Below, one piece after another: positions 13,298 to 46,128 of a stretch of DNA of 64,000 bases; position 1 is the stretch's first letter; every line of letters starts with the position of its first letter. The stretch lies in assembly GCF_003334785.1 (NCBI RefSeq), contig NZ_QOWV01000006.1; one strand, written 5' to 3'. A program made the position numbers and the translations under genes. Under the pieces are notes generated by a model. That model did not search any database, was not told the DNA's origin, and saw nothing but the letters and a program-made list of their open reading frames with translations. The DNA is from Escherichia coli. GTDB lineage: Bacteria > Pseudomonadota > Gammaproteobacteria > Enterobacterales > Enterobacteriaceae.

Positions 13298-13434
13298 CGT
13301 GTAATGGCTGCATGAAATAAACAATAAAATATAAATAACATTATCAGCCTGCTGACGGCTTGAAGAGAGTCACAGTATCTTGTGCAACATTATTGGAAAG
13401 AGTGAGGGGCGAGGTAGCGAAGCGGAAAAATGTT

Positions 13435-13540
13435 AAAAAAAAGCCCATCGTGGGAGATGGGCAAAGACTACACACAGCAATTCGTTGTTTCACTCAGGGG
13501 ATTTCCATGCTTATAAATCAATATGTTGATTTATAACCGT
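13435..13540 (-). ncRNA. rprA: RprA small regulatory RNA (Hfq-dependent activator of rpoS translation)
   Basis: Minus-strand sequence ACGGTTATAAATCAACATATTGATTTATAAGCATGGAAATCCCCTGAGTGAAACAACGAATTGCTGTGTGTAGTCTTTGCCCATCTCCCACGATGGGC followed by a T-run; matches my recollection of E. coli RprA, including the terminal GC hairpin (CCCATCTCCCACGATGGG). Confidence 0.9.
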
Positions 13541-19131: not shown

Positions 19132-19245
19132 ATTATTCTTATCGCCCCTTCAAGAGCTAAGCCACTGAGAGTGCCGGAGATAAGCGCCGGATGGGGTAGA
19201 AACCCTTAAGCCTGTGTCGCACAGACTTAAGGGTTTTCTTATTTC
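19132..19245 (+). ncRNA. rydB: Candidate RydB sRNA locus with rho-independent terminator hairpin (exact ends uncertain)
   Basis: Intergenic ydiH-sufA position where rydB lies in E. coli; strong hairpin AACCCTTAAG...CTTAAGGGTT (19201..19235) followed by TTTCTTATTTCT on the + strand. The sequence itself was not matched from memory. Confidence 0.35.
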
Positions 19246-36781: not shown

Positions 36782-36906
36782 TGTTACTTACCTGTACGCA
36801 TTCTTTCGAATTTAGTGTTATCAGATAAGTTTGGTTGAGATTTTTAGAATTTGAGAAATTTCAGACAGGGATGAAAAGGGCGCTAACCGCCCTTGATTAA
36901 ATTCTG

Positions 36907-37212
36907 TCAGGCGAGTTTTGCCTGATTGATTTGACTAAGTGGCTCATTGACATCGAAAACTTTGGCGACAACTTCCTCAACGCCGAGATTTTTCAGTCGG
37001 GCAGTATGTTTTTCCAGATAGGCAAGGGCGCTTTTTTCATCAGTGAAAAGGTAGATCCCACCGGCTTCGTGGTTCTTTTCACTTTCTGTCCATACCTTCC
37101 ACAGAAAACCAGGTTCCTGATTAATCGACTCAGCAAGTGGTTTAAGCTGCTCAGCCATTGCGTCGCCAAATGGGCCATTAAAAGCAAAATGAAGTTGTAA
37201 CAAAGTTGCCAT
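36907..37212 (-). CDS. ydhR: Small protein, putative monooxygenase-like
   Basis: ORF track 101 aa. Confidence 0.85.
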
Positions 37213-37319
37213 AGCGATTCTCCTTCTGATAACGCATACGAAGACAGTGTAAATCTTTTAACGTATTGGATACAGAGAAGAAACAGAGGGAAAAAGGAGA
37301 AGACCAGATTAAGAAAATC

Positions 37320-37396
37320 TGGTGCGTCCGAGTGGACTCGAACCACCGACCCCCACCATGTCAAGGTGGTGCTCTAACCAACTGAGCTACGGACGC
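37320..37396 (-). tRNA. valW: tRNA-Val (anticodon GAC)
   Basis: Reverse complement GCGTCCGTAGCTCAGTTGGTTAGAGCACCACCTTGACATGGTGGGGGTCGGTGGTTCGAGTCCACTCGGACGCACCA; anticodon loop CTTGACA; encoded CCA. Confidence 0.95.
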
Positions 37397-37400
37397 AGGA

Positions 37401-37477
37401 TGGTGCGTTCAATTGGACTCGAACCAACGACCCCCACCATGTCAAGGTGGTGCTCTAACCAACTGAGCTATGAACGC
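37401..37477 (-). tRNA. valV: tRNA-Val (anticodon GAC)
   Basis: Reverse complement GCGTTCATAGCTCAGTTGGTTAGAGCACCACCTTGACATGGTGGGGGTCGTTGGTTCGAGTCCAATTGAACGCACCA; a near-duplicate of valW with compensatory acceptor/T-stem changes. Confidence 0.95.
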
Positions 37478-37503
37478 AACGTTGTAGGTGACAACGGGGA
37501 CGA

Positions 37504-37532
37504 ATATTAGCGGCAGAGTGGGAAGGTGGCAA
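37504..37532 (-). promoter_or_regulatory. Candidate sigma70 promoter for valV-valW
   Basis: Minus strand -35 TTGCCA, 17-nt spacer, -10 TAATAT, then a GC-rich discriminator (CGTCCCC) typical of stable-RNA promoters, about 20 nt upstream of the tRNA 5' end. Confidence 0.55.
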
Positions 37533-37784
37533 GAGGCAAAACGTAATTTTCTGCGCTATTTCGACCGTTTGCAGAGCTTTTAAGCAAATTGGCTATATTT
37601 TGTTGATTTGCAAGGGTGATTTTTATTCAGGATCGCATTTACATCTGATACAACCCAATAATTCGTGTATCAGAGTTTAAACAGAGTTGTTTGCCACCAT
37701 CTCAAATCTGTCGTGGATAAATCCTCCGTAGCCTTTACACTTAGGTAGCAATAAAGGCACACAGATGCAGCAAAGGAATAAATC

Positions 37785-39041
37785 ATGGGATCTGATGCGA
37801 AAAACTTGATGAGCGACGGGAACGTGCAAATTGTTAAGACCGGCGAGGTCATTGGCGCGACGCAACTTACTGAAGGCGAGTTGATTGTTGAAGCTGGCGG
37901 AAGAGCCGAAAATACCGTGGTCACGGGGGCTGGCTGGTTGAAAGTGGCAACCGGTGGGATCGCCAAATGCACACAGTACGGTAACAATGGCACGCTATCG
38001 GTCAGCGATGGTGCCATTGCCACAGATATTGTTCAGTCCGAGGGAGGCGCAATTAGTCTCTCTACGCTCGCTACGGTTAATGGCCGCCATCCCGAAGGTG
38101 AATTCAGCGTTGATAAAGGTTATGCCTGCGGTTTGTTGCTGGAAAATGGCGGTAACCTGCGTGTACTGGAAGGACATCGCGCGGAAAAAATCATTCTCGA
38201 TCAAGAGGGCGGCCTGTTGGTTAATGGGACAACCTCAGCGGTCGTGGTAGATGAAGGTGGTGAATTGTTGGTGTATCCAGGTGGGGAAGCCAGCAATTGT
38301 GAGATTAATCAGGGCGGCGTTTTTATGCTGGCCGGGAAAGCCAGTGATACGTTGCTTGCTGGTGGCACCATGAATAATCTCGGTGGTGAAGACTCTGACA
38401 CTATTGTTGAGAATGGATCCATTTATCGTCTGGGGACGGATGGCCTTCAGCTCTACAGTTCCGGTAAGACGCAAAACCTGTCCGTGAATGTGGGTGGTCG
38501 GGCTGAAGTGCATGCCGGTACGCTGGAAAACGCGGTAATACAAGGTGGGACAGTGATCCTGTTGTCACCCACCAGCGCGGACGAAAATTTTGTCGTAGAG
38601 GAAGATCGCGCACCGGTTGAACTGACCGGGAGTGTTGCATTACTGGACGGCGCTTCAATGATTATTGGTTATGGCGCAGAGCTGCAACAATCAACGATTA
38701 CTGTACAGCAGGGCGGTGTGTTGATTCTAGACGGCAGTACGGTAAAAGGTGACGGTGTCACTTTCATTGTTGGTAACATCAATCTGAATGGTGGAAAACT
38801 GTGGCTGATCACTGATGCGGCAACGCATGTGCAACTGAAAGTGAAACGCCTGCGCGGAGAGGGAGCGATTTGCCTGCAAACCAGTGCAAAAGAAATTTCA
38901 CCTGACTTCATCAATGTGAAAGGGGAAGTTACCGGGGATATACACGTTGAGATAACAGATGCCAGTCGGCAAACTCTGTGTAACGCTCTGAAATTACAGC
39001 CAGACGAAGACGGGATTGGCGCAACGCTCCAGCCTGCGTAA
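37785..39041 (+). CDS. ydhQ: Autotransporter-passenger-like beta-helix repeat protein, no obvious signal peptide or beta-barrel
   Basis: ORF track 418 aa; recurring Gly-Gly-containing pseudo-repeats about every 20 residues. Confidence 0.85.
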   Translation: MGSDAKNLMSDGNVQIVKTGEVIGATQLTEGELIVEAGGRAENTVVTGAGWLKVATGGIAKCTQYGNNGTLSVSDGAIATDIVQSEGGAISLSTLATVNGRHPEGEFSVDKGYACGLLLENGGNLRVLEGHRAEKIILDQEGGLLVNGTTSAVVVDEGGELLVYPGGEASNCEINQGGVFMLAGKASDTLLAGGTMNNLGGEDSDTIVENGSIYRLGTDGLQLYSSGKTQNLSVNVGGRAEVHAGTLENAVIQGGTVILLSPTSADENFVVEEDRAPVELTGSVALLDGASMIIGYGAELQQSTITVQQGGVLILDGSTVKGDGVTFIVGNINLNGGKLWLITDAATHVQLKVKRLRGEGAICLQTSAKEISPDFINVKGEVTGDIHVEITDASRQTLCNALKLQPDEDGIGATLQPA

Positions 39042-46068: not shown

Positions 46069-46112
46069 TCCATTTCACTCCAGACCCTAACTTCAGCTCC
46101 TGCAAAATCGCA

Positions 46113-46128
46113 AGGTAAACGTTTGCCT
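46113..46128. promoter_or_regulatory. PurR operator in the purR 5' leader (autoregulation)
   Basis: Minus strand AGGCAAACGTTTACCT, 45-60 nt upstream of the purR ATG. Confidence 0.7.

Follow-up and report, generated by a model that had tools for sequence, protein, structure and literature searches.

Which transcription unit is formed by two valine tRNA genes that lie head to tail on one strand of an Escherichia coli chromosome segment, how is it started, processed and ended, and what should be made of the open reading frame and the antisense RNA family match found on the opposite strand? These questions were addressed in a 64-kb stretch of E. coli DNA, analysed as a whole and called the window below. 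The locus is the E. coli valV-valW valine tRNA operon, an ordinary and already known one. We are close to certain of the explanation as a whole, in which the published promoter and processing of valV-valW are combined with inferred steps of regulation and termination.

Two tRNA-Val(GAC) genes that differ by three compensated pairs

Analysis of the window with ARAGORN revealed exactly two tRNA genes, both tRNA-Val(GAC) and both on the minus strand:

37401 to 37477, minus strand: valV, tRNA-Val(GAC), 77 nt, with encoded CCA (ARAGORN, Rfam, RefSeq)
37397 to 37400, minus strand: intergenic spacer TCCT (UCCU in the RNA), 4 nt (sequence)
37320 to 37396, minus strand: valW, tRNA-Val(GAC), 77 nt, with encoded CCA (ARAGORN, Rfam, RefSeq)

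The matches to the Rfam model RF00005, which cover model positions 1-71, scored 70.1 and 69.6 bits (gathering score 29; E-values about 1e-14), values that place the tRNA calls far beyond chance. ARAGORN and Rfam thus agree on what the earlier note had read from the letters alone, namely a tandem minus-strand pair of 77-nt tRNA-Val(GAC) genes 4 nt apart.

Both genes fold into a cloverleaf with a 7-bp acceptor stem, a D stem, 5-bp anticodon and T stems and the conserved loop bases, and every stem pair of the two copies is standard except for one G-U in the T stem. The anticodon called by ARAGORN is gac in both, within an anticodon loop UUGACAU that has U33 and a purine at position 37. The identity elements of valine tRNAs are A35, C36 and the discriminator base A73; both genes carry A35, C36 and an A before CCA, giving a 3′ end ACCA. 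Both are genes for tRNA-Val2, whose GAC anticodon reads GUC and GUU. Of the 7 valine tRNA genes of E. coli, valV and valW are the only two of valine isotype 2 (Agrawal et al. 2014, PMC4176162).

Comparison of valV with valW revealed six differing positions (linear 5, 7, 51, 65, 67, and 69), which make up the three pairs 5:69, 7:67, and 51:65, or 5:68, 7:66, and 50:64 in canonical numbering. Between the two genes, pair 5:68 changes from U-A to C-G and pair 7:66 from A-U to G-C, both in the acceptor stem, while pair 50:64 changes from U-A to G-C in the T stem. As each of these pairs exchanges U-A or A-U for C-G or G-C, pairing is kept in both copies. The earlier claim that the copies differ only by compensatory changes in the acceptor and T stems was therefore correct for all six positions.

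To place these differences in a wider frame, species-representative genomes were scanned for pairs of Val(GAC) anticodon arms at a distance of 56-86 nt, which gave at least 120 loci. At 35 or more of them, a valV-type gene is followed by a valW-type gene, both 100% identical to those of E. coli and showing the same six differences; the genera concerned include Citrobacter, Enterobacter, Lelliottia, Kosakonia, Pseudescherichia, Siccibacter, Mangrovibacter, Shimwellia, and Superficieibacter. Among the matches listed, the valV-type and valW-type genes are set apart by a pyrimidine-rich spacer of 3-17 nt. Judged by their sequences, valV and valW are isodecoders three compensated pairs apart, each of which has been kept unchanged across many genera despite so short a distance between them. 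The pattern extends beyond this pair of genes. Among the matches listed, 158 adjacent Val(GAC) gene pairs from all taxa contain 490 compensated stem-pair changes, next to 36 one-sided G-U changes, 50 changes at unpaired positions and 2 non-standard pairs; the 490 compensated changes against 2 non-standard pairs indicate that the compensatory pattern between neighbouring Val(GAC) genes is general.

The locus and its context in E. coli genomes

The 1-kb region around the genes is 100% identical to E. coli K-12 MG1655 and to many other strains, and the RefSeq annotation has two tRNA-Val genes at this place, flanked by the divergent ydhQ and by ydhR, which is on the same strand. A 271-nt query comprising promoter, genes and trailer was matched in all 5426 of the 5426 complete E. 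coli genomes, with at least 99% identity in 5372 of them. The locus is a textbook E. coli K-12 tRNA operon; work that appeared between 2007 and 2020 describes its promoter, its start sites and its RNase P-dependent processing.

The window is collinear with K-12 and K-12-like, but it differs from the one MG1655 record compared by 7 substitutions and a 59-nt insertion. The latter, at 47867-47925, falls between ydhP and sodB, in intergenic sequence that is REP-like (GCCGGATGCGG...). Three further Rfam matches above threshold were observed in the window, all to RNA families described in Rfam: STnc550 at 46069-46459 (plus strand, 396 bits), RprA at 13433-13540 (minus strand, 118 bits, annotated as rprA in RefSeq) and rydB at 19144-19204 (plus strand, 82 bits).

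We also considered the locus as an integration site for mobile elements and rejected this reading, given a context that is constant in E. coli and an IS3 element in only 1 of the 5426 genomes. In that genome, E. coli CEC96047 (L004, NZ_AP026104.1, 247-1586), an IS3-family element replaces the promoter and valV up to its CCA, so that valW alone is left.

A conserved sigma-70 promoter upstream of valV

Transcription of the operon involves the following elements, all located upstream of the mature valV sequence:

37535 to 37556, minus strand: A-tract/T-tract stretch GCGCAGAAAATTACGTTTTGCC, putatively UP-element-like (sequence; pattern largely conserved)
37527 to 37532, minus strand: -35 hexamer TTGCCA, 5/6 consensus match (consensus scan; published valV promoter)
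37504 to 37509, minus strand: -10 hexamer TAATAT, 4/6 match, 17-nt spacer from the -35 hexamer (consensus scan; published valV promoter)
37498 to 37503, minus strand: discriminator TCGTCC, 4/6 G+C, with C as the second base after the -10 hexamer (sequence; near-invariance)
37496 to 37497, minus strand: transcription start sites, two adjacent C (published primer extension, PMC2190699, placed on the window)
37478 to 37497, minus strand: 5′ leader, 19-20 nt, removed by RNase P (literature; folding)

The minus strand thus reads TTGCCA, 17 nt and TAATAT from 37532 to 37504, then TCGTCC, then CC. The primer extension of Mohanty & Kushner 2007 located two starts, at C residues 18 and 19 nt upstream of mature valV, and they described a valV promoter with 4/6 matches in its -10 and 5/6 matches in its -35 element (PMC2190699). 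These match counts are the scores of TAATAT and TTGCCA, which identifies the promoter found here as the published one, and the mapped starts, 37497 and 37496, lie 7 and 8 nt past the -10 hexamer, at the canonical distance. The -35/-10 pair that the earlier note had placed upstream of the tRNAs was thus recovered by the consensus scan and agrees in hexamer scores and starts with the published primer extension (PMC2190699); its G+C-rich discriminator was likewise confirmed, with 4/6 G+C in TCGTCC and 6/8 when the two start Cs are counted. As shown by the published experiments, this sigma-70 promoter, TTGCCA-17 nt-TAATAT, starts transcription at the two C residues upstream of valV.

An alignment of the upstream regions of 34 Enterobacteriaceae species, among the matches listed, reads as a clean phylogenetic footprint of the published valV promoter. 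In the -35 region, CTTG is invariant and the next CC nearly so; the -10 hexamer is invariant and the discriminator TCGTCC nearly invariant, while the 17-nt promoter spacer varies freely. The block GCCGCTAATATTCGTCCCCGTTGTC, which comprises the last spacer bases, the -10 hexamer, the discriminator, the starts and the first leader bases, is invariant or nearly so, and the first leader bases CCGUUGUC are almost invariant in related species. Such constancy of the discriminator and start region next to a variable promoter spacer points to selection on the discriminator and the initial transcribed sequence.

Folding of the leader predicted a hairpin CGUUGU-CACCU-ACAACG just past the start site, with 37496-37491 paired to 37485-37480 on the minus strand. 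Of 18 distinct leaders from related species, nearly all form a similar small hairpin when folded; RNAalifold returned no consensus structure for the related 5′ leaders (alignment gaps), although single leaders do fold.

Farther upstream, a AAAATTACGTTTT tract lies at about -53 to -41 of the valV promoter, and a GAAAA..T...TTT pattern upstream of the -35 hexamer is largely conserved in the 34 Enterobacteriaceae species. Apart from this A/T-tract pattern, no clear match to a UP or Fis consensus was found upstream of the valV promoter. A separate conserved block was observed at 37557-37590 (minus strand), in the interval that separates the valV promoter from the divergent ydhQ and about 60-90 nt ahead of the start. 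It reads GCAATCG.GTGAAAT in most genera and GCAAACGGTCGAAAT in E. coli, with no match to a regulator or Fis consensus found in it, and it could be a candidate regulator or Fis-type site.

Stringent control of the valV promoter

As a class, the tRNA and rRNA promoters of E. coli are inhibited by ppGpp/DksA through short-lived open complexes. These are associated with G+C-rich discriminators and with a C two bases after the -10 hexamer, a position at which rRNA P1 promoters have a C. By analogy with other stable-RNA promoters, the G+C-rich discriminator would render the valV promoter sensitive to ppGpp/DksA and to growth rate. Stringent control of this promoter, with which the earlier note had found the discriminator consistent, is in our view a reasonable inference from that segment, and the conservation of the discriminator supports a functional role for it.

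The valV promoter might instead be an ordinary sigma-70 promoter, free of specific stringent or growth-rate control, in which the G+C-rich discriminator is incidental. TCGTCC is indeed merely 4/6 G+C, the sequence in which a UP element or Fis site was sought shows only the A/T tracts, and the literature searched yielded no paper that tests ppGpp, DksA, Fis or growth rate at the valV promoter. An incidental discriminator is nevertheless hard to reconcile with a segment that, together with the start region, stays almost invariant in 34 species beside a variable spacer, and a valV promoter lacking such control would depart from the class-wide inhibition of E. coli tRNA and rRNA promoters by ppGpp/DksA. 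We therefore regard an uncontrolled promoter as unlikely and retain stringent control as the preferred reading.

Processing of the dicistronic precursor

Expression and processing of valV-valW have been followed by Northern blots and primer extension (PMC2190699). According to the published experiments, RNase P cuts the dicistronic precursor at the 5′ end of each tRNA, which both separates the two tRNAs and generates their mature 5′ ends without RNase E. RNase P alone is reported to separate the valV-valW precursor (PMC2190699, PMC4176162, PMC7049720), with no significant role for RNase E in its processing (Mohanty & Kushner 2007 and successors; PMC2190699, PMC7049720), a result explained in the published work by a UCCU spacer devoid of an A/U-rich site. 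Removal of the trailer is attributed to PNPase and RNase II (PMC2190699, PMC7049720), and 3′ exonucleases trim the tRNAs to the encoded CCA, as also published.

In the Term-seq data of Adams et al. 2021, a 3′ end with about 1.1e7 reads lies exactly at the valV CCA (PMC7815308 supplement 1). A weak 3′ end (about 1845 reads), which stems from one growth-condition table of the same study, was also noticed at 37211 (minus strand), which is the T in the ATG of ydhR and lies 109 nt past valW (PMC7815308 supplement 1); it might reflect read-through from valVW or attenuation at ydhR.

A conserved hairpin in the valW trailer

The sequence following valW was described by Mohanty & Kushner 2007 as without predicted structure, and termination as Rho-dependent (PMC2190699); the latter claim cites as support that ydhR is not co-transcribed (PMC2190699). 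Our scan and folding point to two elements at this place:

37303 to 37323, minus strand: predicted trailer hairpin ACCAGAUU-UUCUU-AAUCUGGU, whose 5′ arm starts with the valW ACCA (scan, folding, covariation)
37291 to 37302, minus strand: pyrimidine tract CUUCUCCUUUUU past the trailer hairpin (scan, sequence)

The hairpin has 8 bp with only 3 G-C pairs, and the tract behind it is interrupted. For the 46 nt around it, folding gave -12.3 kcal/mol (z = -4.0), and a simple terminator scan found 2 such sites against 1.2 expected by chance. Citrobacter, Enterobacter, Lelliottia, Pseudescherichia, and others have a longer equivalent hairpin, GCACCA...UGGUGC, and the sequences of its inner stems differ. 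The valW 3′ end thus contributes ACCA to the 5′ arm in Escherichia and GCACCA in Citrobacter, Enterobacter, Kluyvera-like and Pseudescherichia loci. In E. coli CEC96047, the strain with the IS3-family element, the loop of the valW trailer hairpin shows a C to G change and the stem is intact.

RNAalifold was applied to 18 related trailer hairpins, mutually related sequences that had been chosen because they fold, and predicted 10 pairs, 3 of them with double compensatory changes. In the same 18 trailers, selected in this way, 92.8% of the cells are paired, as against at most 43% when the partner is slid, and 11 cells show double changes; shuffling gives 4.2, and none of 500 shuffles came to 11. 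Other Enterobacteriaceae have a trailer without any hairpin, and many of the hairpin-bearing relatives have no U tract. A conserved trailer hairpin, as these comparisons predict it, is in conflict with the published description of the valW trailer as unstructured.

For termination itself, the evidence bears on two mechanisms. With a base count of T 34, C 16, A 13, and G 7, the first 70 trailer nucleotides in E. coli show the richness in pyrimidines and the low G content expected of a Rho-loading site. The tract CUUCUCCUUUUU could close a weak intrinsic terminator, or it could open a Rho-loading region that is C-rich and G-poor. The published species VWT still carries the trailer and exceeds the trimmed precursor by about 35 nt, a length that fits a 3′ end just beyond the hairpin. 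At this locus, the only 3′ ends in Adams et al. 2021 are the mature valV end and the weak one at the ydhR ATG, and no Rho-termination region is listed near the locus in that study. Transcription would end about 30-35 nt past valW, at or just beyond the hairpin that includes the valW ACCA end, by an intrinsic or a Rho mechanism.

That the hairpin is a real, conserved functional element is a tentative proposal, which we rate somewhat below even. It might act as a weak intrinsic terminator, in which case it would set the trailer of about 35 nt, or it might hide the RCCA end, in which case the action of RNase P or of exonucleases on the last tRNA of the operon would be delayed. The hairpin is the only point at this locus that is new, and it is only mildly so.

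Two signals on the opposite strand

Two features of the plus strand could suggest that the locus encodes something besides the operon. One is an open reading frame:

37322 to 37510, plus strand: 62-codon open reading frame with a GTG start, program-listed, antisense to both tRNAs and unannotated

Its open frame and GTG start are what could be expected of a gene for a small protein. The frame is, however, wholly antisense to the two tRNA genes, its peptide contains an internal two-fold repeat that mirrors the tRNA gene duplication, and RefSeq annotates no CDS at these positions on the plus strand. Among the matches listed, 35 species have identical tRNAs; in 23 of them, whose spacers measure 4, 10 or 13 nt, the frame is open across both tRNAs, and in the remaining 12 it is broken. 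A frame that stays open only when the spacer length keeps phase, is broken in 12 of 35 such species and carries no annotation is not a gene, as the earlier note had already concluded, and a small protein encoded here has a negligible chance. On the sequences compared, this frame is best described as arising incidentally, from an antisense frame of the tRNA sequence that has no stop codons.

The other feature is a match to RF02194 (HPnc0260 antisense RNA) at 37196-37358, also on the plus strand, which lies opposite the 3′ half of valW, the spacer from there to ydhR and the initial ydhR codons. It covers the full model length with 112.1 bits, well above the gathering score of 59, and further matches of this family occur at the corresponding position in E. 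albertii (103.5 bits) and, with 62-68 bits, in Enterobacter, Citrobacter, Pseudescherichia, and Superficieibacter, as would suit a functional HPnc0260-like antisense RNA overlapping valW and the start of ydhR. About 37 bits of the score, however, merely come from the reverse complement of a tRNA 3′ half, the second copy alone scoring 36.6 bits. Outside Escherichia the scores lie just above threshold, and no match was found in Pantoea, Aeromonas or Malikia. A consensus scan of 36800-37900 detected no sigma-70-like promoter on the plus strand. HPnc0260 itself is listed as an uncharacterised antisense transcript of H. pylori and is elsewhere merely tabulated, as one antisense RNA detected by RNA-seq in Pectobacterium and in one Rfam-based core ncRNA list. 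These scores fit a conserved RNA less well than a model that carries tRNA-antisense together with Escherichia-like trailer sequence. HPnc0260 was consequently rejected as the main reading, and a functional antisense RNA in addition to the operon appears very improbable. The match is probably a property of the model, and we do not file the locus under RF02194.

Nothing was found that speaks against identifying the locus as valV-valW. The main use of this check is as a control, since an unaided first reading proved accurate to the base for the tRNAs, their compensation, the hexamers and the spurious reading frame.

Comparison with known tRNA operons

The closest known system is valV-valW of E. 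coli K-12 itself. Its sequence is identical over the whole locus, with the same neighbours ydhQ and ydhR, and the 4-nt UCCU spacer, the promoter and the start sites are common to both, so that no difference exists at the locus.

The leuQ-leuP-leuV operon of E. coli resembles valV-valW in that RNase P alone separates the tRNAs and PNPase and RNase II remove the trailer (PMC2190699), and the same authors termed it Rho-dependent as well (PMC2190699). Unlike valV-valW, it contains three leucine tRNAs with longer spacers; it is known here from its description. The valU-valX-valY-lysV and lysT operons, which encode tRNA-Val1 (UAC), share with valV-valW the tandem valine tRNAs and their RNase P-dependent separation (PMC4176162), but they carry a different isoacceptor with lysine tRNAs mixed in (PMC4176162). 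They have canonical Rho-independent terminators, which RNase P removes first, before processing continues in the 3′ to 5′ direction (PMC4176162).

Head-to-tail Val(GAC) arrays of 2-5 genes with short spacers, like valV-valW, are also found in Aeromonas, Pseudoalteromonas, Shewanella, Pantoea, and Erwinia. The neighbouring genes of such gammaproteobacterial arrays likewise differ almost only by compensated stem changes, whereas copy numbers and isodecoder sets are their own. Five Aeromonas loci (L011, L024, L031, L079, and L124) have five tandem tRNA-Val(GAC) genes alternating between two isodecoder classes, which differ at 13-14 positions, nearly all compensated, and canonical G+C-rich terminators are found at the end of these five-gene arrays. 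Many of the gammaproteobacterial arrays, those of Aeromonas for example, end in a canonical G+C-rich terminator with a U tract and have no hairpin that pairs with ACCA, in contrast to the valW trailer.
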